Positions 2,500 to 23,273 of a stretch of DNA of 55,299 nucleotides are shown piece by piece (position 1 is the first letter of the stretch; each line of letters starts with the position of its first letter). The notes under the pieces were generated by a model. That model did no database searches. It was not told where the DNA came from and saw nothing but the letters and a program-made list of their open reading frames with translations. This DNA is from Myxococcota bacterium. GTDB lineage: Bacteria > Myxococcota_A > UBA9160 > PR03. The position numbers were made by a program, and so were the translations under genes. Where the stretch lies: the NCBI GenBank assembly GCA_041577695.1, contig JBFGIM010000002.1, positions 1-55,299 on the forward strand, written 5' to 3'.

Positions 2500-2763
2500 T
2501 TGGCCAACCACAAGTCCGCCATCAAGCAAGCCCGTCAGGACCTGAAGCGGCGCGAGCGCAACCGCGGGGTCAAGAGCCGCGTCCGATCGCTGGTGAAGGC
2601 GCTCCGCCAGGACCTGGCGGAGGACAAGGCTGAGCCGGAGCAGGCACGCGACGTCGAGAAGGCGCTGCGCAAGGCGGCGAGCAAGGGCGTCATCCCCAAG
2701 CGGCGCGCCAGCCGTCAGGTGTCGCGCTTGGCGCGGCAGGTCGCCAAGAACGCCAAGGGCTAG
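2500..2763 (+). CDS. rpsT: 30S ribosomal protein S20
   Basis: In-frame TTG at 2500 inside ORF 2401..2763 gives (M)ANHKSAIKQARQDLKRRERNRGVKSRVRS..., the canonical S20 N-terminus. Length 87 aa. Confidence 0.9.
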   Translation: MANHKSAIKQARQDLKRRERNRGVKSRVRSLVKALRQDLAEDKAEPEQARDVEKALRKAASKGVIPKRRASRQVSRLARQVAKNAKG

Positions 2764-3740
2764 GCCGAGAGGCCGATCACCAATCTCTCCAGGGCCAACG
2801 TGGACGGCACTGCGCCCTGCCCCTTCAACAGTTCGTCGGTTTCGTGGATGGCGCCGAGGCAGCGCTCCAGTCGCGGCGGCGTGTAGCGTTGGGCCTGGCT
2901 GCGCAGCTTGCGGACCACGAAGGGCGGACCCGCGGCGGCTTCGCCGTGGCGCAGGCGCAACAGCTTGCGGAAGTGCGCTGCCAGGGAACCGAGCAGCACG
3001 GGCGCGGGCGCGCCGGCGTGCAGCAGCTTGTCGAGCACGGCCAGGGCCTCGCCGCTACGGCCGGCGCCGATCGCGTCGGTGAGGTCCCAGATCGGCTCCT
3101 CGGCCACGTCTGCCACCGCGGCACGTACGTGTGCCGCAGTTGCACGGGCCTCGGTTCCCGCCAGCAGCGCGATCTTCTCCAGCTCGCGGCGCAGCAGCAT
3201 CAGCTGGGGCCCCACGCGCTCCACCAGCGCCTCGACCGCATCCGCTTCGATGGCCAGGCCCTGGCGGGCGGCCTCTCCGCGCACGAACGCGCTCAGGTCG
3301 CGAGCCCGCGGCGGCTCGCACAGCACCAGCGCGGCCGGATCGCGGAAGGCCTTCACCCAGGCCAGCCGTCGATCGAGTGCACCTGCACTGACCACCAACA
3401 CCGTCTCCGCCGCCGGGTCGAGGGCGGCCACGACCTCCGGCAGGGCCGTGGTCGTCGTCTTCCACGCGGCGCGCCCGACGTTGCCCACGGGCTCGCGCAG
3501 CAACACCAGCCGGCGCCGGGCCATGACCGGGAGTGTCCGCAGCGCGTCGCGCAGCGCACCCGGTGTGGTGGCCTCGCCCTCGAGACGATCGAAGTTGAAG
3601 TCCGCGGGACCGCCGGCCAGCACGGCGTCTCGCAGGGCCGCCAGGGCGTCGTCTCGCAGCAGCGCCTCGGTGCCTGCCACCAGATAGGCGGGCCGCAGCT
3701 CGCCGCGCTCCAGCTCGCTGCGCAGCTCGTCCGGGTTCAC
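2760..3740 (-). CDS. holA: DNA polymerase III delta subunit
   Basis: 326-aa ORF. N-terminus ...LRPAYLVAGTEALLRDDALAALRD... and overall length fit HolA. The GTG start at 3740 overlaps the stop of the upstream lptE-like gene (GTGA). lptE-holA is the usual synteny. Confidence 0.85.
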   Translation of the reverse strand: MNPDELRSELERGELRPAYLVAGTEALLRDDALAALRDAVLAGGPADFNFDRLEGEATTPGALRDALRTLPVMARRRLVLLREPVGNVGRAAWKTTTTALPEVVAALDPAAETVLVVSAGALDRRLAWVKAFRDPAALVLCEPPRARDLSAFVRGEAARQGLAIEADAVEALVERVGPQLMLLRRELEKIALLAGTEARATAAHVRAAVADVAEEPIWDLTDAIGAGRSGEALAVLDKLLHAGAPAPVLLGSLAAHFRKLLRLRHGEAAAGPPFVVRKLRSQAQRYTPPRLERCLGAIHETDELLKGQGAVPSTLALERLVIGLSA

Positions 3741-4312
3741 CGGCGCAGCTGCTCGGCCAGCGACTCGTGCACCCGCTGAGCGAGCACGTCGGCCAGGCGG
3801 CGCACCGCCTCGCTGCGGTTCTTGCGGGCCGCTTCGACGTCGGGGCTGGTGAGGTAGAGCTCCCAGGCCCGGGTCTGGCCCGCGGGGAGCGCCAGCGTGG
3901 TGCCGTCGCGGCGGCGGGCCGTCAGCTCGAGTTTGAGCTCCAGCTCGTACTCCAGCACCAACGAGGCAGACGATACGCTGCCGCGGCGCAGCCCGAGCGG
4001 CAACACGATGCCGGAGATGAAGAGGTCGGCCGCCGCCGGGTCATCGGTCAGCCGGACGCCGCCGTGGCGAACGAACTCGCGGGCCAGCGCGTCGGTGACG
4101 ACCACCTCGACGCCCGGCTCGTAGGAATCGTTGCGCAGCGTCTGGATCGCCACGTGGCCGACGCCGCCGAGCGATTCGTCGAAGCGCACCCACCGATAGC
4201 CGCAGCCGGCGCCGAGCAGACCCGCGACCAGGACGGCCACGATCCAGGCGCAGGGCCTCCGCCGCGCGATGCGCCCGCGCAGCCGCGCGCCACCGTGTTC
4301 CCCGGCCGTCAT
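3737..4312 (-). CDS. lptE: LptE-like outer-membrane lipoprotein (191 aa)
   Basis: ATG at 4312 in the tail of ORF 3737..6007. Lipobox LLGAGC followed by GYRW. Size and position immediately upstream of holA match lptE. The family call rests mostly on synteny. Confidence 0.6.
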   Translation of the reverse strand: MTAGEHGGARLRGRIARRRPCAWIVAVLVAGLLGAGCGYRWVRFDESLGGVGHVAIQTLRNDSYEPGVEVVVTDALAREFVRHGGVRLTDDPAAADLFISGIVLPLGLRRGSVSSASLVLEYELELKLELTARRRDGTTLALPAGQTRAWELYLTSPDVEAARKNRSEAVRRLADVLAQRVHESLAEQLRR

Positions 4313-4374: not shown

Positions 4375-4752
4375 CTATTCGAGCTTCAAGAGGCTCCGGA
4401 CCAGCCGCAACAGCTGGTTGGCCTGGACCGGCTTGGTGACGTACTCGTTGGCCCCGAGAGCCATGGCCCGCTCGCGGTCCTCCTGGCCGCCCTCGGTCGT
4501 GATCACCACGATGGGCATGTCCTGGAGACTCTCCTCTTCCCGGATCAGCCGGATCAGCTTGAGCCCGTCCATCACCGGCATGTTGATGTCGATCAGCGCC
4601 AGGTCGAAGGGGTCGCTGGAGAGCTTGCGCAAGCCGTCCATGCCGTCCTGCGCCTCGACCAGGTCGACGTCCTTGAGACGTTTGAGCGTGAAGACCAGCA
4701 ACTGCCGCATGGTCGGACTGTCTTCGGTGATCAGGATGCGATGCCGAGCCAT
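4375..4752 (-). CDS. single-domain CheY-like response regulator
   Basis: ATG at 4752 preceded by GGGGGAGTGAGG. Receiver motifs are present: ILITEDS, DLALIDINMPVMDG, PIVVITTEG, YVTKP. Confidence 0.9.
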   Translation of the reverse strand: MARHRILITEDSPTMRQLLVFTLKRLKDVDLVEAQDGMDGLRKLSSDPFDLALIDINMPVMDGLKLIRLIREEESLQDMPIVVITTEGGQEDRERAMALGANEYVTKPVQANQLLRLVRSLLKLE

Positions 4753-4791
4753 CCTCACTCCCCCCTGCGCCGGCGCGCCGGCGAAGCGCGT

Positions 4792-5589
4792 TCAGTCGGT
4801 GAGCAGTTCCAGGAAGCCGCGGATCGTCTGGAGCTTCCGCGCCGATTGCGAATAGAGCTGGGCTGCGAACATGGCGGTCGCCGCATGGGCGGCGAGCATG
4901 GTGAAGAGCTCGTAGTCCAGCGCGCTGAAGCCCTCTTTCTGCTGCAACAGCTTCTCGATCGAGATCGCGCCGATCGGCCGATCCTGCACCCGCAGCGGGA
5001 TGCAGACCAACGGGCCCACCCCCTCTGCCTCGGCACAGTGGATCTCTCCGGAAGCCACGGCGGACCCGATCGGGCCCTCGCCCAACGGCACCTCGCCGAA
5101 GCTCTCGAGGTCGGCTCCCTCCGCTGCGACGGGAGCGAGCATCCCGCTGTTCTCGTCGAGGGCGAAGATGGCGAAGACCTCGGCGCCGATCAGGTTGATC
5201 ACGATCTCCACCACGATCGTCAGCACCTCGGCCAGGTCGAGGGTGGAATGCAGCTGGTAGCTCGCAACGTAGAGATTGACCAGCTGGTTGTTCTCGTCTT
5301 CCACCTCGAGATAGCGCCGGGCGAAGTTGTCGTTCTCCGCCTCGGCCAGCTCCAGTCGCGTGAGCGCCTCGCGGCGCTCGCGCTCGAGGCCCTCGACGCG
5401 CGAGACCAGCTCGCTGCGCAGCCTCTCCCAGCCGGCATCCTCGGACGTCGCCGACTCGAGTGTCTCGAGCTCGGCGACCTTGCGGCGCAAGCGCTCGTTC
5501 TCGCCGAGCAGCTCGCGGGTGAACTCCGCGCCGCGTCGGAACAGCCCGAGGACGTCCTCCGCGCGCGAGAAGAGCTCGCGTTCCTTCAT
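4792..5589 (-). CDS. coiled-coil + GAF-domain protein (265 aa)
   Basis: ATG at 5589 overlaps the cheB stop (ATGA). The N-terminal heptad-rich stretch (ENERLRRKVAELETLE...RVEGLERERREALTRLELAEAEN) is followed by a GAF-like core (LAEVLTIVVEIVINLIGAEVFAIFALDENSGMLAPVAAEG...PIGAISIEKLL). Confidence 0.8.
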   Translation of the reverse strand: MKERELFSRAEDVLGLFRRGAEFTRELLGENERLRRKVAELETLESATSEDAGWERLRSELVSRVEGLERERREALTRLELAEAENDNFARRYLEVEDENNQLVNLYVASYQLHSTLDLAEVLTIVVEIVINLIGAEVFAIFALDENSGMLAPVAAEGADLESFGEVPLGEGPIGSAVASGEIHCAEAEGVGPLVCIPLRVQDRPIGAISIEKLLQQKEGFSALDYELFTMLAAHAATAMFAAQLYSQSARKLQTIRGFLELLTD

Positions 5590-6671
5590 GTCCGTACTCC
5601 CATGCCGGCGCCCGATCCGAGGTCTGCGGCCAGCGCATCGCGAATCGCTCCGGCGATGCTCCACAGCGGGAGCACCGCATCCACCATTCCGGTGCGCACG
5701 GCCTGGTCGGGCATCCCGAATACCACGGCGGTCTCCTCCGATTCGGCCAGCACGGCACCACCGGCGGCCTTGATCGCGGTCGCGCCGGCGCGCCCATCGT
5801 CGCCCATGCCGGTGAGCACCACGCCCAGCAGGTCCTCTCCCACGTGTTTGGCCGCCGACTCGAAGAGCCTGTCCACAGAGGGCGCGTAGCGGTCCGCACC
5901 GCTTGCCGGACAGACTCGCAACGCGGTGCGACCCGCGCGGCGCTCGAACTCGAGATGGCAGCCGCCGGGCGCCACCAGCACCACCCCCGGCTCGCAGACG
6001 TCGCCACTCTGGGCCTCCCGCGCGTCGAAGAGGGTCAGGCGATCGAGGCGCTCCGCGAAACCCTCGGTGAAGCCGGCGGGCATGTGCTGGGCCACGACGA
6101 CCGACAGCTCCGGCCGCTCGACGAAGCCGCCCAGCACGCGCATCAACGCCGTCGGCCCCCCGGTCGATGCGCCGAAGACCGCCACCCGCGGCGCGCGCCG
6201 CAGCGGTGAAACCCCGCGCGGAGCCTGGGGCGCCGCTTCGAGGCCCTCGCGCACCTTCTGGATGCGGAGCTGGCGGATGGCGTGGACTTTGCGCAGCAGC
6301 GACTGCTCGATCTGTTCGAGCTCGGGCGTCGCGCGCGGTGTCGGCTTCGCAACGAAGTCGACAGCGCCGAAATCGAGCGCGCGGAACAGGTCCTGGTCGT
6401 CACAGCGGGCGCTGATCACGATCACCGGCGTGGGCAGGCGGCTCATCACCAGCCGCAGGAAGGTGAAGCCGTCCATGCGCGGCATCTCGAGATCGAGCGT
6501 GATCAGGTCGGGTCGCAGCTCCATCACCTTGCGCAGCGCTTCCTGACCGTCGCCGGCGTTGCCGATCACCTCGACCAGTGGCGACCGCTGCAGCATGCGG
6601 GTGATGGCGCGGCGGCTGAACGGCGAGTCGTCCACGACGAAGGCCCGGATCGGCGTTCGCACGCTCGTCAC
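5586..6671 (-). CDS. cheB: chemotaxis response regulator protein-glutamate methylesterase
   Basis: GTG at 6671 overlaps the cheR stop (GTGA). Receiver motifs (AFVVDDS, DLITLDLEMPRMDG) are followed by the methylesterase domain (VFGASTGGP, AQHMPAGFT, VVLTGMGDDG). Confidence 0.9.
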   Translation of the reverse strand: MTSVRTPIRAFVVDDSPFSRRAITRMLQRSPLVEVIGNAGDGQEALRKVMELRPDLITLDLEMPRMDGFTFLRLVMSRLPTPVIVISARCDDQDLFRALDFGAVDFVAKPTPRATPELEQIEQSLLRKVHAIRQLRIQKVREGLEAAPQAPRGVSPLRRAPRVAVFGASTGGPTALMRVLGGFVERPELSVVVAQHMPAGFTEGFAERLDRLTLFDAREAQSGDVCEPGVVLVAPGGCHLEFERRAGRTALRVCPASGADRYAPSVDRLFESAAKHVGEDLLGVVLTGMGDDGRAGATAIKAAGGAVLAESEETAVVFGMPDQAVRTGMVDAVLPLWSIAGAIRDALAADLGSGAGMGVRT

Positions 6672-7576
6672 CAGTCCGGCTCCTCGTCCAGCGCCTCCAC
6701 CGCCTGGCGGGCGGCGCGCTGCCATGCCGACTCCTCGGGCGGCCGGTGGTAGACCATGTCGTTCTCGAGGTGGCGCAGTTCGAAATCGCGCGACAGCTGG
6801 ATGAGCGACTCGGAGTGACCCAGCAGCAGGTAGCCGCCCGGGCGCAGCTTCTCGTGGAAGAGGCGCACCGCGCGACGCTTGACCTCCAGGTCGAAGTAGA
6901 TCAGCACGTTCCGGCACAACACGACGTCGATCGCGCCGAGCAGGCCGGTGCGTTCGGTGTCGAGCAGGTTCAGGTGGGCGAAGTGAACGTGCTTGCGGAC
7001 CTCGTCTGAAATGCGGTGTAGACCGTCCATCGGCTCGAAGTAGCGCCCGATGATCGATGGCTCGGTTTCGCGGAACGAAGCGTCGCGGTAGAGACCCCGG
7101 CGCGCCTTGCGCAGCATCGGCCTCGAGATGTCCGAGGCGTAGACGCGGAAGTCGCGGCCTGGCTCCAGGCCGGCTTCGAGCCCGAGCATCACGACGGAGT
7201 ACGGCTCCTCCCCGCTCGAGCAACCGGCCGACCAGATCGAGACCGGCCGGTCCTGCCCGTCGGGCTCGGCGCGCAAGGCGGGGATGACCTCGTCGATCAG
7301 CGCGCGCAGCTGCTTTCGCTCGCGCAGGAAGTAGGTCTCGTTGGTGGTCAGGACGTCGATCGCCCAGCCCATCTCACCGTCGCCGGATTCGTCACGCCTC
7401 AGCAGGTAGTGATAGGCCGTGAAGCTCGGCAGGGAGAGCTCCGTCACCCTGCGCGCCAGGCGCCGCTCGACCAGGTAGCGCGACTCCGGGCCGAAGTGCA
7501 GTCCGCAGCGTCGGCGCACCAGGTCACCGATCATGCGAAACTCAGCGTCGGTCATGCGGACGTCGCCGTTCCCCAT
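6668..7576 (-). CDS. cheR: chemotaxis protein methyltransferase
   Basis: ATG at 7576, 8 nt after the upstream stop. CheR motifs are present: LTTNETYFLRE, IWSAGCSSGEEPYS, VLCRNVLIYFD. Confidence 0.9.
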   Translation of the reverse strand: MGNGDVRMTDAEFRMIGDLVRRRCGLHFGPESRYLVERRLARRVTELSLPSFTAYHYLLRRDESGDGEMGWAIDVLTTNETYFLRERKQLRALIDEVIPALRAEPDGQDRPVSIWSAGCSSGEEPYSVVMLGLEAGLEPGRDFRVYASDISRPMLRKARRGLYRDASFRETEPSIIGRYFEPMDGLHRISDEVRKHVHFAHLNLLDTERTGLLGAIDVVLCRNVLIYFDLEVKRRAVRLFHEKLRPGGYLLLGHSESLIQLSRDFELRHLENDMVYHRPPEESAWQRAARQAVEALDEEPDW

Positions 7577-7584
7577 GGCGCCGC

Positions 7585-9675
7585 TCAGGGCTCCAGCCGA
7601 TCGAGGGCACGCAGCAACACCTGGCGCACGTACTCGTCGCGTTCCTGCTCGAGATTGCGAAGCATCGCCGGCACGGCCGCGGCCACCCGCCGCTCGGCGA
7701 GTGCCTCGATGGTGTCGGCGCGCACACCCCAGTGCGGATGCGCGACCAGCGGAATCAATTGCGCCAGCTCGTCGGATCCGGCGTGGCGACGCCAGACTCC
7801 CACCAGCGCCTGGACCAGCTCCGGATCGGGCCGGTTGATCAGGGCGCCGAGCGGCGCCAGCGACACCGTCGAGCTCAACCCTGCGAATGCCTCCACCGCG
7901 GACAGCGCCACCGGCGCCTCGTCGTCGAGGGCGCACTCGAGCAGGCGGCGCAACTCCTCACGCAGGGATTCCTCTGCACGCACCGCCAGGGTGCCGAGCG
8001 AACGCACCGCCGCCGCGCGTACCAAGACATCGTCGTCGGCCAGCATGTGTTCGAGATCGTGCAGCACCGCCGGCGCGTCGATCTCACCGAGCGCCGCGGC
8101 CACGGCGCGGCGCACGTCGGGCGACTCGTCGGCCATGGCCAGGTGCAGGTCTTCGGGCACCCGGCCGGAAGCGATGCGCGCCAGGGCACGCGCCGCCTCC
8201 GCCCGCACGCGCGGACTGGGGTCCTGGATCAGGAGCGCGATCAAGGCACCGTGCTCGGCGCCGCCGACACGACCCAGGATCTGTGCCGTGGCCAACCGCA
8301 GCGGCTCGGCGCCATCGGTGAGGGCCTCGCGCAGACGGCCGAGTACGGTCCGCGTCGCCGTGGGCGTCGCCTGCGCCAACGCGCCGAGTGCTTCGGTCAG
8401 CGCCTCGCGTTCCTCGACCCAGTCGGGCTCGTCGTCGGCGACCAGGGCCCGAAGCTGGAGCACCAGCGGTTCGCAGGCCACCGGGTCGGCCCGCCGGCCG
8501 AGCGCGCTGGCGGCTGCCGTGCGCACCTCGGGATCCTCGTCGCCGAGCGCGATCAGCAGCCGGTCGAGGGTGCGCGGCGAGCCGGCGCCACCCAGCAACT
8601 CGCAGGCCAGTCGGCGCCCATCGCTGTCGAGACCCTCCCATGCCTCGTCCAGTACGTCGGCCGCTCCGTCCGCGAAACCCTCGAGGGCGCCGAGTACCAC
8701 GTCGCGCAGCGCCTCGTCGCGCCCGGCGCGCAACATCGGCACCACGGCGCGCGGGTTGCGCAGCAGACCCAGGAACTGGACCCAGAGCAGGCGCGTCGTC
8801 AGCTCGCCACTCTCCAATCCGTCGAAAGCATCGTCCAGCAGGCGCGGGCTCTCCTGCGACGTCTCGCGGATGCGCGCACAGAGCCGCTCGACCTCGTTCG
8901 CCTCGATCGCTCCGACCAGCTGCACGAGCGCCTCGACCGCAGCCTCTCGGGCCGACCGGGCCGAGAGCTGGAGGCCCTTGAGCAGGGATTCGGCGGCTTC
9001 GGGATCGCCGGACCGACCGAGCACGGCGAAGGCGGCCGGTCGCAGCAGCGGATCACTCAAGACCCCGGCCAGCGCGTCGGCGCTGAGCGGCATCTCGAGG
9101 CGCGCCAGCCCGCGCAGCGCCGACAGCCGCACCAGCGTGTCTTCACCTTCGCGCAGCGCCAGGCGCTCCAGCTTGCGTTCGGAATCGTGCCCACCGATCG
9201 CGCCGAGAGCATCGGCAGTCGCCGCGCGCACGTTGGTATCGGGGTCGCGCAGCAGCTCGCCGAGCCGAGGGACGGCCTCCAGGCTCCCGATGCCCGCCAG
9301 CGCATCCACTACCAGCTTTCGCACGTCCACACAGGAGTCGCGGCTGGCATCGATCAGCAGCGGGACCATGATCCGGCCACGCCGCACCAGGGCGTCGACG
9401 GAGGCATTGCGGCGGCCCGCGTTGTCCTCGTCGGCGAGAGCTTCGATCAGCGCCCGGCCGGCCAGGACGTCGTCGGCCACGCCGACCATGCCATCGATGG
9501 CGGCCTTGCGGACGCGCCAGCTCGGATCGCCGAGGCTGGCGCTGAGGAACGGCACGGCCGTGAGGGACGACAGCAACGCGGCGCGCTCCACCGCAAGTCG
9601 TCTCGCTTCGGCGTCGGGGCTCGCCAGGTCCTCGCGGATCTGGGCGAGGTCGCGCGGATCCTCGCCCGTGTTCAC
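7585..9675 (-). CDS. HEAT-repeat (PBS-lyase-like) protein, 696 aa
   Basis: About 15-18 copies of the motif L.D.D..VR.AAA.ALG... (e.g. LRDPDTNVRAATADALGAIG, LGDEDPEVRTAAASALGRR, MADESPDVRRAVAAALGEI). The GTG start at 9675 overlaps the upstream stop (GTGA). Confidence 0.85.
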   Translation of the reverse strand: MNTGEDPRDLAQIREDLASPDAEARRLAVERAALLSSLTAVPFLSASLGDPSWRVRKAAIDGMVGVADDVLAGRALIEALADEDNAGRRNASVDALVRRGRIMVPLLIDASRDSCVDVRKLVVDALAGIGSLEAVPRLGELLRDPDTNVRAATADALGAIGGHDSERKLERLALREGEDTLVRLSALRGLARLEMPLSADALAGVLSDPLLRPAAFAVLGRSGDPEAAESLLKGLQLSARSAREAAVEALVQLVGAIEANEVERLCARIRETSQESPRLLDDAFDGLESGELTTRLLWVQFLGLLRNPRAVVPMLRAGRDEALRDVVLGALEGFADGAADVLDEAWEGLDSDGRRLACELLGGAGSPRTLDRLLIALGDEDPEVRTAAASALGRRADPVACEPLVLQLRALVADDEPDWVEEREALTEALGALAQATPTATRTVLGRLREALTDGAEPLRLATAQILGRVGGAEHGALIALLIQDPSPRVRAEAARALARIASGRVPEDLHLAMADESPDVRRAVAAALGEIDAPAVLHDLEHMLADDDVLVRAAAVRSLGTLAVRAEESLREELRRLLECALDDEAPVALSAVEAFAGLSSTVSLAPLGALINRPDPELVQALVGVWRRHAGSDELAQLIPLVAHPHWGVRADTIEALAERRVAAAVPAMLRNLEQERDEYVRQVLLRALDRLEP

Positions 9676-10928
9676 CCGCTCCTCCGGTTCTCGGCGGCGC
9701 GAACCAGCTCCTCGGCGAGATAATCGCGCTCCTCACACACCCGCGCTTCGATGCGGTCCGCGAAGAGCGAGCGGCCCTCGGCCAGCTCGTCCTTCAGCGC
9801 CTCGAGCACGCGGTCGTCGGCCACGGCGGCCGCGAACTTCTCCGGGTTGTAGAGCACGATGTCCGAAACGATGATGCGCGCCAGCCGCTCGGCGCGAGCG
9901 CGCTCGTCGGCGAGCGGATCGGGCGGCCCGGGCGCGGGGGGCGGCTCGGCTGCCGGCTCCGGCTGGGGTGCCGACTCCGGCTCGGGGGGAGCCGGCTCGA
10001 AGGAGGGCTCCGGCATGTCGAGCTCGATCGGCTCCGACGGGTCCAGGGCGAAGTCGCCCGCGGGCGACTCCCTATCGAGCGTCGGCAACGCGGGCTTGCG
10101 GTCGATCGCGGGCTCCGGCGCCGGCGGCAGTGACGTGAAGCTGCTGCTCGACGACCCGAACTCGAACTCGGGTTCCGGCTCCGGGTCCGGGTCCGGATCC
10201 GGCGCTTCGATTTGCGGCTCGACCGGGATCGGCGCGGGCGGCGCGGGCTCGGACACCACCGGGCCCGCGGAGTCCTGCACGCCGAAGCGCTCCAGGAGGT
10301 TCGGCAACGCCTCGGGCAGCTGGCGCGGCTCGACGTACGCGTCGGCGCCGTAGAGTTCGCTGGGTGCGCGACGGTAGCGGCCCTCCTTGTGCAGGGCTCC
10401 CACCAACACCACCGGGATCGAGCTCAAGCTCTCGTTGCGCTTCATCAACTCGCAGATCTGGAAGCCGAACATCTTGGGAAGGGCGGCGTCCAGCACCACC
10501 AGCCGGGGCAGCGTGCGCTGAACGGTGAGGATCGCCTCGACCCCATCGTGGGCCACCACGACCTGCAGGCCGCGCGCCTCGAGCTGGTCACCCAGCTCCT
10601 TGCAGGCGCTCGCTTCGGGGTGCGCCACCAGGACCAGCCGCTCGCGGTCGAAGCGCGGCTCGGCCGGCGACCCGGTCGGTGCAGCCTCGGACTCGGTCGT
10701 AACCGTCGGACCCTGGGCGGGACGCTCCGCCGGCTTCGCGGCGGAGACCGGCGCCGGCTCCTGGGGAGCCGGGGCGCGCGCCGGCGCGCCGGCCTGGCCG
10801 CGCGTCTCGGGCGGTCGTACCCGGAACACGGCGCTACAGCGACTGCACCGCAGGCGCAGACCGTCGCCCTCGAGCTGATCGGGACGGATGCGGTAGCGCG
10901 TTCGACATTTCGGACAGGCCGCAATCAT
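9672..10928 (-). CDS. zinc-ribbon (MJ0042-type) + receiver domain + Pro/acidic linker + conserved C-terminal helical domain protein
   Basis: N-terminus [37 protein letters not shown] (CxxC...CxxC). Receiver-like core LVLVAHPEA...[13 protein letters not shown]...PVVLVG. Low-complexity [15 protein letters not shown] linker. The ATG at 10928 overlaps the MCP stop (ATGA). Confidence 0.85.
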
Positions 10929-13546
10929 TTCGACTCCCTCGGGCCGTCAGCCGCGTGCACGACAGCCTCCAACTCCCCTACATCGGCGTCTCGCCCTGCG
11001 GACTGAGGCTCGGGCGGGTGCGAAATCCGGAAACGGGCGATGCCCTCCCGCAGCGCGGCGGCCTGGTCCAGCAGATCGCGACCTGCGGCACGCATCCGGG
11101 ATGCATTCCCCTCGTTGGCGTGTGTATTCTGCAACACCTCCGCCATCGACTCCGCACTTTCGGTGCAGGCGGCGCTCTGCTCCTGGAGCGCCGCGTCGAT
11201 CGTATCGACCGCCTGGCGCACCCGCTCGACGCCCTCGCGGATCCGGGACCCGCCGCGACTCTGTTCGCGGGTGGTCCGGTCGAGCTGCTGGGACACCTCG
11301 CGCAGCGTCCTCACCGCGCTCAGCACCTGCGCGCTCCCGGTGCCCTGCTCCGCCGTCGCCCGTTGGAGCGACTCGACGGCGCCCCGCACCCGATCCATCT
11401 GGGTGGCCACGTGGGTCGAGACCCCTGTCTGCTGCTGCACCGCCGCGACGATCTCCGCGATCCGAGAGCCCGATTCGCGTGCGGTGCGCGTGATCACCTC
11501 CAGCGACTCGCCGGCCTGGGCCGAGCGGCTGACCCCGTCGAGCACGCTGGCGCTGCCCTCCTCGATGGCGGTGACGGCCGCGGCCGTCTCTGCCTGCACC
11601 GCGCCGACCAGCGCTCCGATCTCCTTGGTGCTGGACATGACCCGCTCGGCCAGCTCCTTGATCTCGTCGGCCACGACGGTGAACGCGCGACCGTGCTCCC
11701 CGGCCTGGGCCGCGATGATGGCGGCGTTGAGCGCGAGCAGGTTGGTCTCGTCGGCGACGTCGTCGATCACGTCGACCACGGCGCCGATCTCCTCGGTGCG
11801 GACGCCGAGACCCCGGATCACCGCCTGGGCGGTCTCCGTCGCGTCGCGGATCGCCTCCATTCCGGCGATCGTCTCCTGCACACGGTGGCGACCCCCCTCG
11901 GCCACTTCGACCACCTGGAGCGAGAGGCGCGCGGTCTCCGAGGCATTTGCGTCCACGTCGCGCATGGAGCCGGCCATCTCTTCGATCGAGGAAGAGGTCT
12001 CGATCGAGGCCTCCCGCACGCCGTCCACCTGGGCCTGCATCGAGGCGACGCCCGCCAACATCTGCTCGAGCGCGGAGGACACGCTCTCCATCTGCTCCGA
12101 CAACACGCCCGCCGTCTGCGAGAGCTGCTCGCCAGCGGCGCCCATTTCGAGTACCGAGCTGGACGATTCCTCGACCGTCTGCGACAAGCCCTGCGCCGAT
12201 CCGGCGATGCCGCTGACCTGTTCGCGCACCGCGTCGGTGCGACGGGTCGCCTCGCGCACGCCGCGCACCTGGGCTTCGGTGGCGTCCGAAACGCCCCTGC
12301 CGATGCCCACCAGCTCCGCCGCCGCCGCCTCGACACCGTCGGCCGTCGCCGCCACCCGCTGCACCATCATCCGCAGGTTGTCGCGCATGGTGACGAAGAC
12401 GCGACCCAGATCGCCGAGCTCGTCGTCGGACGCGAGGGCGTCGCCGCCGCTCAGGTCGCCGCCGGCGATGCGCTCGGCCTCGGAGCGAAGCCGTCCCGCC
12501 ACGCCGGACACGTCGCGGGCAAAGAGCGAGGCCACCAGGGCGGAGACGAGCCCCACCACGGCGAGCAGCAGGCCGAACACGGGACCGATGCGACCCGTGT
12601 GCGCCGCCAGGCGTTCGAGCGGCAGCCAGGCGATCGCCGTGCGCCCGTCCGCGAGGCGCCGCCAGGTGAAGCAGTGAGGCGAGTCGAGCACGGTGCTCTG
12701 CCCCGCTTCGGGTGAGCGCTCGATCGAGCGCCGTTCCTGGGGGGTGAGCGGCAGTGCGGGGTCGCTGGACGGATCGGCGCTGAGGTGCAGCGTGCCCAGC
12801 CCCAGCTCGCGTGCCGCCTCGCCGATCGCGTGGAAGTCTGCGCCGGGCTGGATGCCGCTGTGCAGCATCCGGAGCTGCAGCTCGGCGGTCTGCGATTCGA
12901 GCGGCCGCTCGGCGCGCACCTGGGCCAGCATCACCGAGAAGAAGACGGTGGAGAGCGCCACGCCGCTGAGCGCCGTCAGCAGCTTGGTGGAGAGCGGAAT
13001 GCGGGTGTGCTCGGCCAGCTCGGCCCCCGGAAGCCGGGAGAGAATCTCGACGATGGGAGCGCACAGCCGCTTCAACGTGAAGTACTGGACGGTGTTGGCG
13101 AGCAAGCCACCCGAGAACGCCGACACGGCGACGCGCATGAAGGCCTCGCCGCGCAGCTCCGGATAGGTCCACTCCAGCCCGCTGCCGATCATGGCGCCGG
13201 CGGCGCCGAAGGAACACGCCAGGTAGAAGACGGTGCGGACCGGGAGCCGTCCGGCTTCGGTCAGGGCCGCCGCCACCTGCTCGCGGGTGGCGTGCTCTGG
13301 GGCGTCGAGCCAGGCGCGGAGGTTGCGGTGCTGCCGCCGCGCCCACCCCTCGCTCACGATCGTCGAGAGTACGGCGTAGCCGGCCACCAGCCACAGAAAG
13401 GTCTTCCACTGGTCCGGACTGAAGCGCACCAGTGCGGTGAGATAGAAACTCACCAGCACGGCGGCCATGCCGCCGATCGCGGCCTGGGCGGCCACGAAGC
13501 GCCGGTGGAAGGCGGCCCCGCTCTCGGGCAGATGCTCGCTCAGCAC
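10925..13546 (-). CDS. methyl-accepting chemotaxis protein with multi-TM N-terminal module and HAMP
   Basis: Signalling hairpin [39 protein letters not shown]-like segment ([17 protein letters not shown]). Several N-terminal hydrophobic helices. GTG start at 13546. Confidence 0.9.
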
Positions 13547-14034
13547 GCAGCCTCCTCGCCGGCGGAGCGATGGACGCTCTCGACCAGGTCCTCCAGGGAG
13601 AGCACCAGCAACGGCGGCTCTCCCTCGCGCCGCACCACGGCGCGCACGGCCTGACGTCCAGCGCGCGTCACCAGGTCGGGCGGCGCCTCGACCGACGCGG
13701 AGGGCAGCGTCAGGACGTCGGCGGCGCCGGAGACGCGCAGCCCGAGCGTGAGCCCCTCCGTCTCGACGACCACCAGGCGGCTGGCGGGCGAACGCTCCAC
13801 CGGCTTGCCTTCCAGAGCGCGCCCGAGGTCCACCACGGGAACGATGCGTCCGCGCAGGTCCACGACGCCCTCGACCAGACCCGGCGCGCGGGGAAGCGGC
13901 GTAGTCGGCTGGTCGCGAACGATCTCGCGGATCTGGCGCACGTCGATCCCCAGCGTCCGGCCGCCGAGCTCGAAGGAAGCCAGCTGGATCTCGTCCCGGG
14001 CGATCGTTTCGGTCGTGGGCAGATCGACTCGCAC
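13540..14034 (-). CDS. cheW: chemotaxis coupling protein CheW
   Basis: 164 aa. Motifs [22 protein letters not shown]...[18 protein letters not shown] are typical CheW. Confidence 0.9.
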
Positions 14035-14038
14035 CGCT

Positions 14039-14554
14039 TCACTCCTGGTCCAGATCGAGCAAGCGGTCGACGTCGAGCAGCGAGACGAAGCGTTCGTCGA
14101 GCGGACAAAGCGCCTCGACCAGCTCGCCCTGACCGGTGTTGGGGCTGATCATCTGCGACTCGAGCACGCGCATCACCTGACTGACGCGATCGACCCAGAG
14201 CCCGGCGAGCTGGGCCTCGGCCGTGTGGAGCACGACGATGCGCTGGCGGCGGGGCGCCAGACCCGAGCCCTCGGGAAGCCCGAGGCGCCGGCGCAGGTCG
14301 ATCACCTGCAACACCTCGCCGCGCAGCGAGATCACGCCTCGCACGGCCGCGGGCACCCGTGGCAGCGGCGTGAGATCCCGACTGCGCACGATCTCGCGCA
14401 CGCGTTCTACGGGAAGCGCGTAGAGATCGTCGCCGATGCCCAGCAGCAGGAGCTCGCGCCGCAGCTCGGCCCTCGGTGCCGGCTTCGTGCCGGCTGCGCG
14501 CGCCAGCGCATCCCAGCTCTGCGTTCCGGTGCCGCCGGCGGTTGCATCGCTCAT
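14039..14554 (-). CDS. cheW: chemotaxis coupling protein CheW (second copy)
   Basis: ATG at 14554 overlaps the cheA stop (ATGA). Motifs LLLLGIGDDLYALPVERVREIV...VRGVISLRGEVLQVIDL. Confidence 0.9.
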   Translation of the reverse strand: MSDATAGGTGTQSWDALARAAGTKPAPRAELRRELLLLGIGDDLYALPVERVREIVRSRDLTPLPRVPAAVRGVISLRGEVLQVIDLRRRLGLPEGSGLAPRRQRIVVLHTAEAQLAGLWVDRVSQVMRVLESQMISPNTGQGELVEALCPLDERFVSLLDVDRLLDLDQE

Positions 14555-16611
14555 GCCACCTCCCGGCGTCTGAGGGTGTCCTCGGCGAGGGCGGCCACGT
14601 CCATCACCAGGACCGTGCCGCGCGCGCCGAGATCGGTGGCTCCCGCGATGCCCCGAACGCTTCCGATCGGGCCCTGGATCGGCTTGATCACCGCATCCTG
14701 CTGCTCTTCGAGCTGATCGACCAGCAGTCCGACCCGCGCGTCTCCCAGGGCCACCACCACGACCGCCAGGTTCGCGTCGGGCGCCGGCGGCGGCAGCTCG
14801 AACTCGGCGTGCACGCGGCGCAGCCACAGCGGCTCCCCGCGCAGACGCAACAGTTCGCGCCCCTGCGAGTGCTGGATCTCGGCGGGCGAGATCTGCAGCG
14901 TTTCGAGCACCGACGTCAGCGGTACGGCGAAGCGCTGACTGCCGACGCGGACCGCAAGTGCCTGGATGATTGCCAGGGTGATCGGCAGGGTCAGCGAAAT
15001 GGAGGTCCCGGCGCCGGGCTCGGACTCGATCCCGACCGAGCCTCCCAGGGCAGCGGCGTTTTCGCGCACGATGTCCATGCCGACACCGCGCCCGCTGGTC
15101 GCGCTGACCTCGGCGCTCGTCGAGAGTCCCGGCTGGAACACCAGGTCCAGCACCTCCTTGCGCGACAGATGGGCGTCGGTGCCGACGGAGCCGTCGGCGA
15201 TGGCGCGGGCGAGGATGGCGTCGGTGTCGATGCCCCGACCATCGTCCGAGACCCGGACCACCACGTGATGTCCGCGCTGGAACGCCTCGAGACGGATGCA
15301 ACCCTCGCGCGGCTTGCCGGCAGCGCTTCGCTCGTCGGGCGTCTCGATGGCGTGGTCGAAGGCGTTGCGCACCACGTGCATCAACGGATCCACAAGCTCC
15401 TCGACCAGCAACTTGTCCAGCTCGGTGTCGCCACCCCGGATCTCGAGCTTCACCTCCTTGCCGGAATCGCGTCGGAGCCGCCGCACCACCCGCGACAGCT
15501 TCTCGAAGACCTGGCGCATCGGCACCATCCGCGCCTCGAGCACGCCGGCTTGCAGATCCTGGAGCTTGCGGTCGATGTGCTTGTGAAGCCCGGCGAGTTC
15601 GGCACCCGCCCGCGCGGTGGCGGGATCGGCGCGCAGCCGCGTCGCCAGGGCACCGAGTGCGCCACGTTGGATCACCAGCTCCCCGACCAGGTTCATCACC
15701 TCATCGAGCTTGCGGATGTCCACGCGCACGGTATCGCTGATCGACTTCAGCGACTCGAGCTCGGCCGGGGCTGCGGGGGATGGCGGCGGCGGGGTGGCCG
15801 ACCTCTCCGCGGAACTCGCGCCGGCCGCCGGCGTCCCGCCTGCGGCCTCGCGAAGCACCCGGACCTCCGCTTGCGGCACCTCGAGCCGCACGCGTGCTGC
15901 GGGGTCGTCGAGCTCGCTCGCGGCGAGCAGCGAGAAGCGGATCTCGGCCTCCGGTGAGCCGCCGGGCGCGGGCAGCGTCGAGATCACCTCGCCCGCGTCG
16001 CGCACGGCGCGGGTGAGCTCGGCGAGGCCCTCCTCGAACGCGAGCATCGGGAAGCTCTGCTCCACCAGCAGCAGGCAACGCCCGAGTCGCAGGTTCTCGT
16101 GCAGCCGGTGCTCCTCGTACTCGGTGAGCGCGCGCAGCACGCTCTCCTCCAGCCCCGCCAGGCTCGTCGACGTGGCCGGGCGCGGACTCGCCTCGAGCTT
16201 TTCGCGGATGCGGTCGATCAGCTGCTGCAGGCCCTGGGGCGGCGCGTCGAGCGCTCCCGCCTCCCCCAGCTGCGTCAGCAGCGAGGCGATCCACTCGACG
16301 GACTCGTCGAGCAGATCGAGGGCGGGGGCGTCGGGTCCCAGCCGTCCCAGCCGGAGGCCGTCGAGGATGTCCTCCAGGTGGTGTGCGAGCTGGGTCACTT
16401 CGTCCAGCCCGAACATCCCGGACAGACCCTTCAGGGTGTGGGCCGAGCGGAACAGCCGGTTGGTGCGTTCGGGGTCGAGTGCGCCGCGAGCGCGCTCGTC
16501 GGCCAGATCGGCGAGATCGCTCCGCAGGCGCTCGAGGATCTCCTCGACCTCGGAGACGAACTCGCGCGCTGCCTTGGTGCGTGCACGCGGAGCTTTGCGA
16601 CGCGCCGCCAC
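14551..16611 (-). CDS. cheA: chemotaxis histidine kinase CheA
   Basis: HPt motif FRSAHTLKGLSGMFG. HATPase motifs (HVVRNAFDHAIE, DDGRGID, GRGVGMDIV). C-terminal CheW-like domain. GTG start at 16611. Confidence 0.95.
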   Translation of the reverse strand: MAARRKAPRARTKAAREFVSEVEEILERLRSDLADLADERARGALDPERTNRLFRSAHTLKGLSGMFGLDEVTQLAHHLEDILDGLRLGRLGPDAPALDLLDESVEWIASLLTQLGEAGALDAPPQGLQQLIDRIREKLEASPRPATSTSLAGLEESVLRALTEYEEHRLHENLRLGRCLLLVEQSFPMLAFEEGLAELTRAVRDAGEVISTLPAPGGSPEAEIRFSLLAASELDDPAARVRLEVPQAEVRVLREAAGGTPAAGASSAERSATPPPPSPAAPAELESLKSISDTVRVDIRKLDEVMNLVGELVIQRGALGALATRLRADPATARAGAELAGLHKHIDRKLQDLQAGVLEARMVPMRQVFEKLSRVVRRLRRDSGKEVKLEIRGGDTELDKLLVEELVDPLMHVVRNAFDHAIETPDERSAAGKPREGCIRLEAFQRGHHVVVRVSDDGRGIDTDAILARAIADGSVGTDAHLSRKEVLDLVFQPGLSTSAEVSATSGRGVGMDIVRENAAALGGSVGIESEPGAGTSISLTLPITLAIIQALAVRVGSQRFAVPLTSVLETLQISPAEIQHSQGRELLRLRGEPLWLRRVHAEFELPPPAPDANLAVVVVALGDARVGLLVDQLEEQQDAVIKPIQGPIGSVRGIAGATDLGARGTVLVMDVAALAEDTLRRREVA

Positions 16612-16616
16612 GGGAT

Positions 16617-17000
16617 CTACTCGCGAGGTGCCCGGTCGAGCAGGTCGCGCGCGATGATGCGCAGGGCCTCCGGGTCGAAGGGCTTGACCAGGTACGCGTC
16701 GGCACCCAGCTCGAGGGCCTTGGTGCGGTCGCGCTCACTGCCCTCGGTGGAGATCACCAGCAGCGGGATGTCGCGATAGGCCGGGTTGCCCTTGATGAAC
16801 GAGACCAGCTCGAGGCCGTTGATGTCCGGCATGTTGATGTCGGTCACGACCAGGTGGAAGCGGCGACGCGGCAGCAAACGAAGTGCCTCGAAGCCGCTGG
16901 GCGCCTCGGTCATCTTGAGGTCGCCCCCGAGCTCCTCGAGACTCGAGACGACCAGCGAACGCATGGTCGAGGAATCTTCGACGATCAGGACGTCGTGCAC
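16617..17000 (-). CDS. cheY: CheY response regulator
   Basis: GTG at 17000 preceded by GGGGAGG. Motifs VLIVEDS, LVVTDINMPDINGLE, LLVISTEG, YLVKP. Confidence 0.9.
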   Translation of the reverse strand: MHDVLIVEDSSTMRSLVVSSLEELGGDLKMTEAPSGFEALRLLPRRRFHLVVTDINMPDINGLELVSFIKGNPAYRDIPLLVISTEGSERDRTKALELGADAYLVKPFDPEALRIIARDLLDRAPRE

Positions 17001-17116
17001 GGAAGCCTCCCCAGGGTGGAGAGCTCACGCGGGTGCAGCGGGCGTGAACTCGGCCAGCAAGTAGATCGGCCAGCCCTGCGCTTCGCTTGAGACAATCCAC
17101 CAGCGGGCGGACGATC

Positions 17117-18265
17117 TCAGGGGCGGCTCGCGCCCCCCTGGGCCGCGTTCCGCACCGCGCCGCGCAGCGCCTCGGCGAGGGCCGCACGTTGCTCGCTCGC
17201 CCGGGGATCGAAGAGGGTCGTGGGTCGCGGCTTCTCGCTGCGCGCGTCGGGTTCGGCACCCGCCGGCGGCTGGAGCATTACGGCCTCGGGGTCGGCGAGC
17301 AGCACGACCCGCAACTGGGGCACCTGGGCCCGCAGCCGCGCACTGATCTCGGCCCAGTTGGCCGCGCCGCTCACGGGATCCGCCGGCGTCTCGGTGCTGA
17401 GCAACACCAGCGGCCGCTCGGCCCGCGTCAGGTACTGCCGGATCCGGTTGATCGCCTGCTCCGAGCGCTGGAACACGTGCACCTTGGTCTGCAGCTCCTC
17501 GAGGGAACCCTTGATCCACTCGAGCATCGGCAGCTCGGGATCGATCGCCACCACGGGTGCGCTGAAGTGAGCGGCGTCGCCGCCCCGAGCGACCGGCACC
17601 GCGTCGGGCAGTGCTGCGGACGCCTGCTCCTCGGTTTCGGGCTCGGCCAGTACGGCCTCGAACTCCGCGGCAGAAGCCACGGCCTCCGCCGCCGCGGGAG
17701 CCTCGCGGTCGGATCCGGATGGGCTGCAAGCGGCGTCTTCGTGCGCGCGCAACTCCTGCTCCGCCTCGACGCCGCCCGCCTCGTCGCTCATGCGCGTTCC
17801 TTCCAGGGCCAGGAACTGGGCGTTGTTGCCCGGCGTCAGCAACAGGCCGCCGCTCTCCATCTGCCCGGGCGCGCCGTCCTCGATCGCGAAGGTGAAGTCG
17901 CCGCTGTTCCAGCTGAACATGGCGAGAACGGCGTTCTCGATGTGCTCGCGCCGGAGCTTCTCGTGGCCGGCGGCGTCGAGGATGTCCGAGGCCAGCACGG
18001 CCTCCTCGACCGAGGCGCCGCCGTGCACCCGGGTGCGCAAGGTCTCGAGCGCGGCCCCCTGCGCCAGGCCGGCCCGCTCGATCAAGTCGATCAGGTCCAC
18101 CGGCCCCTGGCGCAGCTGTGCACTTCGGATCAGGCCGCGCTGGAACAGCAGCCGGCCCTCGCCGGTCTTCGACTTGAGGCGCAGAACTCCGGATTTTCCG
18201 GACAAGCTCAGGATCTGGAGAATCTCTCCCAGACCCAGATCCTCGAGGTTTCCGACCAGGCTCAT
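17117..18265 (-). CDS. PATAN/DUF4388 domain protein with C-terminal degenerate receiver-like domain (PatA-like architecture)
   Basis: ATG at 18265. N-terminus MSLVGNLEDLGLGEILQILSLSGKSGVLRLKS (PATAN signature, paralogous to the 32..511 product). The C-terminal alpha/beta pattern VVAIDPE...PLVLLSTE...LRVVLLAD resembles a receiver. Confidence 0.8.
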   Translation of the reverse strand: MSLVGNLEDLGLGEILQILSLSGKSGVLRLKSKTGEGRLLFQRGLIRSAQLRQGPVDLIDLIERAGLAQGAALETLRTRVHGGASVEEAVLASDILDAAGHEKLRREHIENAVLAMFSWNSGDFTFAIEDGAPGQMESGGLLLTPGNNAQFLALEGTRMSDEAGGVEAEQELRAHEDAACSPSGSDREAPAAAEAVASAAEFEAVLAEPETEEQASAALPDAVPVARGGDAAHFSAPVVAIDPELPMLEWIKGSLEELQTKVHVFQRSEQAINRIRQYLTRAERPLVLLSTETPADPVSGAANWAEISARLRAQVPQLRVVLLADPEAVMLQPPAGAEPDARSEKPRPTTLFDPRASEQRAALAEALRGAVRNAAQGGASRP

Positions 18266-18394: not shown

Positions 18395-19012
18395 CTAGTG
18401 GGAGCTGCCCGGTGAGGCTCCCGGCTGGGAGCGACCTCCCGGCGTCCGAGCCGCGGCCGGGGCGCGGCGCTCGCGGGTGCGCGGCAGCGAGACCCCCCCC
18501 GTGGGGTGACCGGCGAGCGCGCGCTCCAGCGCCACCCGGCCGAGGGTCTCGGCCTCGGGATCCACGGCCACGAACACCTGGAGAGTTCCCCGCACCTGCT
18601 CGCGGGCGTCGTGGAGGCCCCGCACCAGGGCATCGGCACCGCCGTCGTCCAGGCCCGGCCCGGGCAGGTGGAGCCGCAGGGTCGGCGCCCCGAGGCCCAC
18701 CGCCTGGCGCGCCGCTTCGCAGACCCGCTGGCGATAGCGGTCGGCATCGTCGTCGCCCCGTTCGCCGAGCCCCAGCAGGAGCAGGCGCGGAGACGCGAGC
18801 CGCGCTTCGCTGGGCAACAGCGCGCGCTCGCCCAGCTCGCCGGCAAAGCTCCGCTCGACCAGCAGCCGTGACAGCCCGCCACACAGGCGCCAATCCGCCA
18901 GTCCGGCGCCGCCGCGCAGCGGCCGCTCGTCGCGAAACACGCCCACCGCGATCAGCGCCGCGCGCGAACGCGCCAGGGGCGTGCACTCGACGTCGAGGGT
19001 CCAGCCGCTCAC
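18395..19012 (-). CDS. conserved hypothetical protein (205 aa)
   Basis: GTG at 19012 overlaps the nusB stop (GTGA). GC3 is high. There is a globular part of about 165 aa (VSGWTLDVECTPLARSRAALIAVGVFRDERPL...) that weakly recalls the N-terminal domain of M17 aminopeptidases. A low-complexity tail follows a C8 run. Function unknown. Confidence 0.55.
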   Translation of the reverse strand: MSGWTLDVECTPLARSRAALIAVGVFRDERPLRGGAGLADWRLCGGLSRLLVERSFAGELGERALLPSEARLASPRLLLLGLGERGDDDADRYRQRVCEAARQAVGLGAPTLRLHLPGPGLDDGGADALVRGLHDAREQVRGTLQVFVAVDPEAETLGRVALERALAGHPTGGVSLPRTRERRAPAAARTPGGRSQPGASPGSSH

Positions 19013-23266: not shown

Positions 23267-23273
23267 TCGCCCT

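Follow-up and report, generated by a model that had tools for sequence, protein, structure and literature searches.

A twelve-gene chemosensory cluster from an uncultured myxobacterium and its probable kinship with Che8 and Esn

A twelve-gene chemosensory cluster in a genome assembly of a Myxococcota bacterium (GCA_041577695.1) raises two questions: to which known system does it belong, and what could it control? The cluster lies on contig JBFGIM010000002.1, of which we analysed positions 1 to 55,299, a stretch of 55,299 nucleotides (nt) referred to here as the window. It combines a CheA, two CheW, two CheY, a CheR, a CheB and a methyl-accepting chemotaxis protein (MCP) with four accessory proteins that bear PATAN, zinc-ribbon, HEAT and GAF domains. 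A sequence-only reading had presented it as an undescribed variant of a non-motility pathway, nearest to Che7 of Myxococcus xanthus. We consider it very probable that the cluster is instead the Myxococcota counterpart of M. xanthus Che8, of the "beta-group" clusters and of the Esn system of Geobacter sulfurreducens. It is therefore not undescribed: clusters of this type have been on record since 2008, and mutants in three of the Geobacter genes show phenotypes. The accessory proteins are uncharacterised.

The cluster and its probable kinship with Che8 and Esn

The window has a G+C content of about 71%, which makes raw lists of open reading frames (ORFs) noisy. Genes were called by frame analysis of G+C content at third codon positions (GC3), inspection of start sites and Pfam scans. 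GC3 and Pfam together place twelve genes between positions 4375 and 18265, every one on the minus strand and in the domain order that had been read from the sequence. In order of transcription they are:

17117-18265 (-), G1, PATAN/DUF4388 protein (Pfam DUF4388, 7.5e-20)
16617-17000 (-), G2, CheY1 (Response_reg, 5e-26)
14551-16611 (-), G3, CheA with Hpt, H-kinase_dim, HATPase_c and CheW domains (Pfam)
14039-14554 (-), G4, CheW (a) (CheW, 1e-33)
13540-14034 (-), G5, CheW (b) (CheW, 1e-30)
10925-13546 (-), G6, MCP of 873 residues (Pfam HAMP and MCPsignal)
9672-10928 (-), G7, zinc-ribbon receiver protein (Pfam Zn_ribbon_4/5 and Response_reg)
7585-9675 (-), G8, HEAT protein of 696 residues (HEAT_2, 2e-66, eight stretches)
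6668-7576 (-), G9, CheR (CheR, 1.6e-52, and CheR_N)
5586-6671 (-), G10, CheB with an N-terminal receiver (CheB_methylest, 2e-56, and Response_reg)
4792-5589 (-), G11, coiled coil and GAF (GAF_2, GAF_3 and GAF)
4375-4758 (-), G12, CheY2 (Response_reg, 1.7e-27)

Nine of the eleven junctions are tight, with an overlap of 4 to 7 nt or a gap of at most 8 nt, in keeping with the mostly overlapping or sub-10-nt junctions described before. Overlaps of 4 nt between start and stop codons join G3 to G4 (ATGA), G6 to G7, G7 to G8, G9 to G10 and G10 to G11, and G5 and G6 overlap by 7 nt. Short gaps separate G2 from G3 (5 nt), G4 from G5 (4 nt) and G8 from G9 (8 nt), and wider ones occur only at G1/G2 (116 nt) and G11/G12 (33 nt). 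The start/stop overlaps indicate translational coupling. All twelve ORFs are intact, with a GC3 of 0.84-0.92 in eight of them, measured over the whole stop-to-stop frame, and of 0.78-0.94 in the rest, measured just downstream of the start. The sequence-only reading rightly found neither CheZ, CheC and CheD nor flagellar proteins; no such family is matched among the twelve proteins in Pfam.

The core proteins are of familiar types. CheY1 and CheY2 are single-domain receivers with canonical residues (E9, D10, D54, T85 and K106 in CheY1; E12, D13, D57, T87 and K109 in CheY2). CheY1 is 64-76% identical to its counterparts in related loci and 60% in Geobacteraceae, and CheY2 is 71-82% identical to its counterparts in related loci. 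CheA (686 residues) carries the P1 (Hpt), P3, P4 and P5 domains, lacks P2 and a fused receiver, and scores below the cut-offs of the NCBIfam CheA models. The CheR methyltransferase has no TPR. The MCP has about six hydrophobic segments, a HAMP domain at about residues 345-393 and, as its signalling part, a long hairpin whose tip is E617. There is not a single proline between residues 323 and 843. Its homologues can be aligned only to residue 841, and the structured part ends near there. Two methylation-like motifs lie at residues 490 and 518. The hairpin arms of 224 + 224 residues fit the 64-heptad class, an assignment made from the lengths alone and not from class-specific hidden Markov models.

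The neighbourhood of the cluster helps to place it. The genes on its two flanks, called with Pfam, are:

18395-18973 (-), upstream, Peptidase_M17_N
19009-19440 (-), upstream, nusB
19452-19910 (-), upstream, ribH, with acpP further on
3737-4312 (-), downstream, lptE
2760-3740 (-), downstream, holA
2335-2763 (+), downstream, rpsT

Moine et al. give the Che8 cluster of M. xanthus as CheY8b(MXAN_4759)-CheA8-CheW8b-CheW8a-[4755]-[4754]-CheR8-CheB8-CheY8a(4751), without an MCP. An annotation table published for M. xanthus gives, next to CheY8b, a Peptidase_M17 N-terminal-domain gene (MXAN_4760), nusB (4761), ribH (4762) and acpP (4769). Since ribH, nusB and M17_N are common to the window and M. xanthus, the cluster is the positional counterpart of Che8 and not of Che7. 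The core agrees as well, as it runs CheY-CheA-CheW-CheW-[two genes]-CheR-CheB-CheY on one strand in both. Thomas et al. found che8 conserved in Anaeromyxobacter and G. sulfurreducens. Tran et al. 2008 described a "beta group" of delta-proteobacterial che clusters, without mcp, in Geobacter and myxobacteria, and mentioned that beta-cluster knockouts alter the extracellular matrix (reported as unpublished and preliminary).

The link to Geobacter comes from a Geobacteraceae metagenome-assembled genome (MAG) whose locus, L087, reads Era-EngA-PatA_N-CheY-CheA-ATPase-CheW-CheY-CheW-ZnREC-HEAT-CheR-CheB-GAF-CheY-leuS-lptE-holA-rpsT, where ZnREC denotes the G7-type zinc-ribbon receiver protein. It carries collinear homologues of eleven of the twelve window proteins, the MCP excepted, at 30-60% identity in tblastn: PATAN 39%, CheY1 60%, CheA 43%, ZnREC 30% over its full length, HEAT 34%, CheR 48%, CheB 50%, GAF 51% and CheY2 59%. 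The flank lptE-holA-rpsT is common to the window and this locus. Furthermore, its gene order agrees with the list published for G. sulfurreducens, namely GSU2220 (CheW, esnB), GSU2221 (ATPase), GSU2222 (CheA, esnC), GSU2223 (CheY), GSU2224 (response regulator) and GSU2225 (EngA). Mutants in esnB and esnC fail to colonise electrodes, an insertion in GSU2224 changes the oxygen tolerance of biofilms, and GSU2221 also scored in Geobacter transposon sequencing. Within the family, phenotypes in electrode colonisation and biofilm oxygen tolerance are known from Geobacter alone.

Several points weigh against the kinship with Che8 and Esn. The earlier suggestion to compare the gene order with the M. 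xanthus che clusters yields a core like that of Che8, but the M. xanthus locus tags leave no room for a PATAN gene next to CheY8b on its M17_N side, nor, between CheB8 and CheY8a, for one encoding a GAF protein. The published beta-group and Che8 clusters lack an mcp, whereas the window has one. In the Geobacter form, CheA and CheW are separated by an AAA ATPase that the window does not have, and L087 has a third CheY. That MXAN_4755 and MXAN_4754 are the zinc-ribbon adaptor and the HEAT protein is a prediction made from position only. Given the differences in mcp, in PATAN and GAF, and in the ATPase, we regard the cluster as a variant and not a copy of these systems. As far as could be checked, the exact twelve-gene form with an in-cluster MCP, PATAN and GAF differs from the M. 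xanthus form.

The cluster is also widely conserved. A profile scan that took one genome for each species and used an alignment (A1) of G7 homologues found relatives in 281 species, and the best 80 of these, all uncultured Myxococcota or "Deltaproteobacteria" MAGs, were taken for locus comparison. The twelve window proteins and the flanking genes were compared by tblastn, and counts were made on the 43 loci that span PATAN to holA. All twelve gene families are kept in 34 of them, which contradicts the refuting condition given with the sequence-only reading, that the accessory genes are not conserved together with the che core. The order is identical in 22; the MCP has moved to the end in seven, five have an extra MCP at the end, three lack GAF and six are reduced. 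The nrdR-ribD and holA flanks are conserved among related loci too. The order is kept across dozens of species in at least three phylum-level groups, and the arrangement is far beyond chance. With eleven of twelve proteins collinear in Geobacteraceae and twelve families kept in 34 of the 43 loci, the accessory set is ancient, and its four genes are an old, conserved part of the Che8/Esn system in Myxococcota, Geobacteraceae and Dadabacteria.

The variable elements are the MCP and the ATPase. The MCP keeps the position it has in the window in 22 loci, as also in L088 (41% G+C), stands at the end in seven and is absent from L084 and L087. An AAA ATPase (AAA_16/AAA_22, about 270 residues) is encoded between CheA and CheW in L087 (7491-8291), L084 (6276-7094) and L088 (5766-6575). 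The window and its Myxococcota relatives have no room for it, as cheA and cheW overlap by 4 nt.

Six reduced loci show which genes can outlast the core. In L065, L033 and L028 a deletion scar joins a partial CheY1 to a partial MCP, and in L032, L059 and L060 the whole che core (CheA, CheW, CheR and CheB) is gone. In all six, the PATAN and zinc-ribbon/RomX-like genes are intact between ribD and holA. The retention of the zinc-ribbon gene is built into the search; that of PATAN is independent of it. This suggests that the pair can work without an array of its own. The zinc-ribbon adaptor also occurs as an orphan. In L081 (10001-11059) it is found by itself at the site of Che8, with M17_N on one side and holA on the other, and in L085 (9266-12445) an orphan zinc-ribbon/receiver-like/RomX-like protein is encoded directly 5' of groES-groEL, which recalls the reported link of CheA8 to the receiver MXAN_4468 upstream of groEL2. 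Its persistence in core-less loci and as an orphan indicates that the adaptor has a function without the array.

The four accessory proteins

Pfam shows no output domain, whether enzymatic or DNA-binding, in any protein of the cluster, and none of the four accessory proteins is matched by a specific NCBIfam model. The most informative is G7, which is predicted by AlphaFold to have three folded modules separated by disordered proline-rich linkers. The N-terminal module (residues 1-37) is a zinc ribbon whose four cysteines, C5, C8, C28 and C31, are all invariant in alignment A1. Its best PDB matches are the zinc ribbon of GltJ/AgmX (7zok, E 2e-5), which has the same four-cysteine spacing, and ZitP (1e-3). 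The M. xanthus GltJ zinc ribbon recruits MglB, and ZitP binds PopZ.

The middle module (residues 98-214) is a receiver homologue (hhalign probability of 98.5% against CheY) that keeps only D147. A102/H103 replace the acidic pair, G177/A178 stand at the Thr/Ser position and E200 takes the place of the Lys. These losses are family-wide, from Myxococcota to Geobacteraceae and Dadabacteria, and we infer from the residues that the domain is degenerate.

The C-terminal module (residues 340-417) is a helical domain that matches RomX (8zna) with an E value of 3.6e-11 as a single sequence. RomX is also the top PDB match of the family profile (6.7e-14). Together with the receiver protein RomR, RomX forms an exchange factor for the polarity GTPase MglA. 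In RomX, exchange activity depends on residues R11, R14 and D19 of helix 1, and binding of MglA-GTP on R11 and R14; the three residues align to R348, R351 and D356 of G7, which are invariant in 20 sequences (A1). The protein ends about 15 residues past the part aligned to RomX. Foldseek with the whole G7 model returned receiver matches only, and the link to RomX comes from the sequence search with the isolated C-terminal domain. G7 brings together three modules, all of a kind that in other proteins is known to communicate with the MglA/MglB polarity switch. Public protein data hold more than 1000 homologues, the closest only 51% identical. The RomX structure paper mentions in passing AlphaFold DB proteins that combine a RomX-like fold, a receiver and a zinc finger. 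In the literature searched we found no such fusion tied to Che8, Esn or a chemosensory cluster.

G1 (382 residues) consists of a PATAN domain (PatA_N/DUF4388, residues 1-162), a disordered linker and a C-terminal domain (238-376). The latter is predicted to have a (beta-alpha)5 fold (AlphaFold, predicted local distance difference test score of 84), and its top Foldseek matches in the PDB are receivers including FrzS (E 2e-4, TM 0.6-0.8). Its hhalign probability against the CheY profile is 4%, so there is no profile similarity to receivers. The model supports a receiver fold that is invisible to sequence profiles. The pseudoreceiver named in the sequence-only reading is in this way upheld as a predicted fold but not as a sequence family. 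The phospho-acceptor position, four residues before the conserved proline, is S290, with Ser, Thr or Ala in orthologues. Set against a PatA-type response regulator, G1 has the N-terminal PATAN and lacks the phospho-acceptor Asp. A distant PATAN homologue in L084 has a fully canonical receiver, and the ancestral head gene therefore appears, from this comparison, to have encoded a PatA-type regulator with PATAN and a phosphorylatable receiver.

Most G1 orthologues have about 550-650 residues and an extra, weak C-terminal GAF_2 (GAF-like) domain that the window protein lacks. The short form also occurs in P0136, P0150 and P0180 (orthologue alignment A2). As a few other genomes share it, the loss of the GAF-like domain is real and recurrent. 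In Synechocystis, the PATAN domain is an output module that binds PilB1 and PilC.

The window carries a second PATAN/DUF4388 gene (32-505, minus strand, 3e-25) toward its start, about 2.2 kb downstream of holA and after rpsT and a 671-residue ORF without a Pfam match. It is 30% identical to the PATAN domain of G1. In tblastn it has matches in 45 of the 80 related loci, a figure that may include the G1-type PATAN of each locus. In L081 a gene of this type lies between a 628-residue TPR-like gene and PhoH.

G8 consists of HEAT repeats of the PBS-lyase and alphaRep type, with alphaRep matches in the PDB and weak, below-cut-off matches to the NblB/CpcE models. It is probably a scaffold. The HEAT gene lies immediately 5' of CheR in all loci, and the two form a single ORF in L083 (1815-4553, 912 residues), from a Candidatus Dadabacteria MAG, and in L084 (9929-11890, 653 residues), from a metagenome contig of 45% G+C. 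Fusion in two distant lineages suggests that HEAT works with the methyltransferase CheR. ZnREC and HEAT seem to be fused in L086, but that contig is riddled with frameshifts and we discount the fusion as an artefact.

G11 is the best-conserved accessory protein, with the motif NLYVASxQLHSTLD and 56 orthologues. Its identity remains at about 50% even in Geobacteraceae, Dadabacteria and the 45%-G+C locus, above that of CheA. Searches of the PDB gave weak GAF matches only and no informative structural relative.

Possible outputs of the pathway

As the cluster encodes no DNA-binding or enzymatic output domain, the output would have to run through protein-protein contacts, which we infer with reasonable confidence; the four conserved accessory proteins are the candidates for them. 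Contacts of this kind with polarity, pilus or surface-colonisation machinery are, to a similar degree, the explanation that we favour overall. The "non-motility" label given before is not supported, as the PATAN, the GltJ-type zinc ribbon and the RomX-like domain point to polarity or the type IV pilus. Taken separately, the identity of the controlled process as polarity, the type IV pilus or surface colonisation has somewhat less than an even chance of being right. More doubtful, and offered as a tentative model, is that the zinc-ribbon adaptor and PATAN are the output of the Che8/Esn class, acting on an MglA-type GTPase and the pilus motor via a RomX-like domain gated by phospho-CheY.

From what is known of the families, the membrane MCP with its very long hairpin, the two CheW and the P2-less CheA would form an array, with CheR and CheB providing methylation-based adaptation. 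CheA would phosphorylate both canonical CheY proteins and CheB. Phospho-CheY could then alter how the adaptors engage the machinery of cell polarity and of the type IV pilus. In this scheme an MglA-type GTPase would be the partner of the RomX-like domain, MglB or another polar factor that of the zinc ribbon, and the pilus motor that of PATAN. The HEAT protein may couple CheR to the complex. Receptor input would in this manner steer surface behaviour or colonisation.

A number of observations tell against this mechanism. No mglA, mglB, romR or pil gene was found inside the cluster or in 88 related loci, and no MglA-like gene in the window or those loci, the MglA query being approximate. The pilD, pilin and ABC genes of the window lie about 11 kb from the cluster behind housekeeping genes. 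The helix-3/Trp87 interface through which RomX binds the receiver of RomR is not evident in G7. The HEAT-CheR fusions favour a role of HEAT in adaptation over one in output. The Geobacter phenotypes concern the electrode biofilm, and the output proposed there in print is a cyclic dinucleotide, while M. xanthus CheA8 is tied to an orphan regulator of groEL.

Other explanations can be put forward. The accessory proteins could be parts of the array itself, HEAT tethering or regulating CheR in the way of the TPR of CheR-TPR fusions and the adaptor and PATAN placing or assembling the array at a cell site, while the output is an unlinked response regulator; we hold this to be possible although unlikely. 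The single HEAT-CheR ORFs of two unrelated lineages (L083 and L084) and the position of HEAT immediately 5' of CheR in all loci fit such an assignment. CheR-TPR fusions are likewise described in PMC3447774 as typical of che clusters with alternative functions, and the zinc ribbons of ZitP and GltJ are localisation and interaction modules. However, PATAN and the adaptor remain intact in L032, L059 and L060, where CheA, CheW, CheR and CheB are gone, the adaptor stands alone in L081 and L085, and the invariant RomX-type residues of G7 suggest contact with an effector. Less probable again is an output through unlinked second-messenger enzymes or transcription factors, such as EsnD or MXAN_4468 acting on groEL, with the accessory proteins modulating input. 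Chan et al. proposed that EsnABC act on the cyclic-dinucleotide synthase EsnD (GSU3376), and the two GAF-type domains of the ancestral system could bind nucleotides. The only functional link reported for Che8 is the cross-talk of CheA8 to MXAN_4468: CheA8 was pulled down with this receiver and its deletion mimics that of MXAN_4468, and the orphan adaptor directly upstream of groES-groEL in L085 fits the same picture. Yet the M. xanthus authors term this link non-cognate cross-talk, the loci examined have no GGDEF, EAL or DNA-binding gene linked to the cluster, and two dedicated canonical CheY are conserved inside the cluster.

The remaining explanations fare worse. In a Che7-like developmental or stress pathway of novel architecture, phospho-CheY would have HEAT as its immediate partner, in the manner of CheY7 and Cpc7. 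A PBS-lyase-type HEAT protein inside a che operon, correctly noted from the sequence (G8), speaks for this, as does the phylogenetic grouping of Che7 and Che8 with Dif; the CheA (686 residues, with a dimerisation domain and no receiver) resembles CheA7 and CheA8 alike. Synteny nevertheless largely refutes it, both flanks matching Che8 and Geobacter and not MXAN_6957-6966. Furthermore, the cluster lacks a desaturase, CheW and CheY are each present twice, its MCP is a membrane protein where Mcp7 is soluble, and the architecture was already catalogued, which together make such a pathway improbable. That the cluster is decaying or no longer functional, or that its signalling genes are neighbours by chance, we consider hardly credible. 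Deletion scars do occur in L065, L033 and L028 and the window G1 lacks its C-terminal GAF-like domain, but the twelve ORFs are intact with high GC3, neither frameshifts nor missing catalytic residues were found, the CheY residues are canonical, start/stop overlaps are kept, and the order persists across dozens of species in at least three phylum-level groups.

The window alone shows an ordinary, intact family member from an uncultured myxobacterium, in a fuller form than the M. xanthus model because it includes an in-cluster MCP, PATAN and GAF. Its interest lies in the adaptor and PATAN, whose conservation gives a testable hypothesis for Che8, a system whose function has been open since publication of the M. 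xanthus genome, and in the homologous Esn genes that decide electrode colonisation in Geobacter. If contacts with polarity and pilus machinery are indeed the output, Che8 and Geobacter electrode colonisation would share one mechanism, the chemosensory control of cell polarity.

Neighbouring genes and comparison with known systems

Farther along the window, a partial type IV pilus set occupies 29496-34473 on the minus strand, about 11 kb from the che cluster with housekeeping genes between:

29496-30371 (-), prepilin peptidase pilD
30372-32155 (-), ABC-2 permease and ABC ATPase resembling M. xanthus pilI/pilH
33039-33863 and 33694-34473 (-), two pilin-like genes with an N-methyl motif

Adjoining the pilin genes, a 1138-residue ORF (34572-37988, plus strand) has an N-terminal region like a major facilitator superfamily transporter and a spermidine-synthase-like domain. 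At 21542-23329 (-), one frame includes ribose-5-phosphate isomerase B (residues 26-163) and serine hydroxymethyltransferase (183-557). It may represent a true rpiB-glyA fusion, or the stop-to-stop call may have run two neighbouring genes together; glyA is a separate gene of 414 residues in L081.

Che7 of M. xanthus comprises CheY7, CheA7, CheW7, Mcp7, Des7, Cpc7, CheR7 and CheB7, has a soluble Mcp7 and falls with Che8 and Dif into one phylogenetic group. Like the window cluster, it has a HEAT (PBS-lyase-like) protein in the che operon and a CheA (CheA7, 683 residues) that lacks P2 and a receiver. The window cluster differs in its two CheW and two CheY, its membrane MCP and the additional PATAN, zinc-ribbon adaptor and GAF genes, and no protein of the desaturase (Des7) family is found among its twelve products in Pfam. 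Che7 occupies the genome region MXAN_6957-6966, whereas the window flanks match those of Che8 and Geobacter.

The cyanobacterial Tax/Pix systems, of the type IV pilus (Tfp) class, also begin with a PATAN protein (PixG, PATAN-REC) followed by a single-domain CheY (PixH). In contrast to these, the window cluster has CheR and CheB and a PATAN protein with a degenerate receiver. Tax systems lack its HEAT, GAF and zinc-ribbon adaptor genes.

The RomR-RomX pair offers the closest parallel to G7. The receiver of RomR pairs with RomX, and a receiver-type domain is part of the same polypeptide as the RomX-like domain in G7. Unlike RomR-RomX and the GltJ and ZitP proteins, G7 fuses the three modules in one polypeptide and is encoded within a che operon.

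Che8 itself shares with the window a CheA with a dimerisation domain and no fused receiver and a CheR without TPR, although CheA8 has 862 residues compared with 686 for the window CheA. Three genes of the window cluster are additions relative to Che8: that of the MCP, which follows the CheW pair and precedes the two accessory genes, the GAF gene just ahead of the final CheY, and PATAN at the head. The Geobacter form has no mcp in the cluster, its receptor EsnA being encoded elsewhere. Its head protein combines PATAN and a GAF-like domain in L087, and GSU2224 carries the annotation of a response regulator. L087 has the complete set of four accessory genes and the two terminal CheY genes, collinear with the window.

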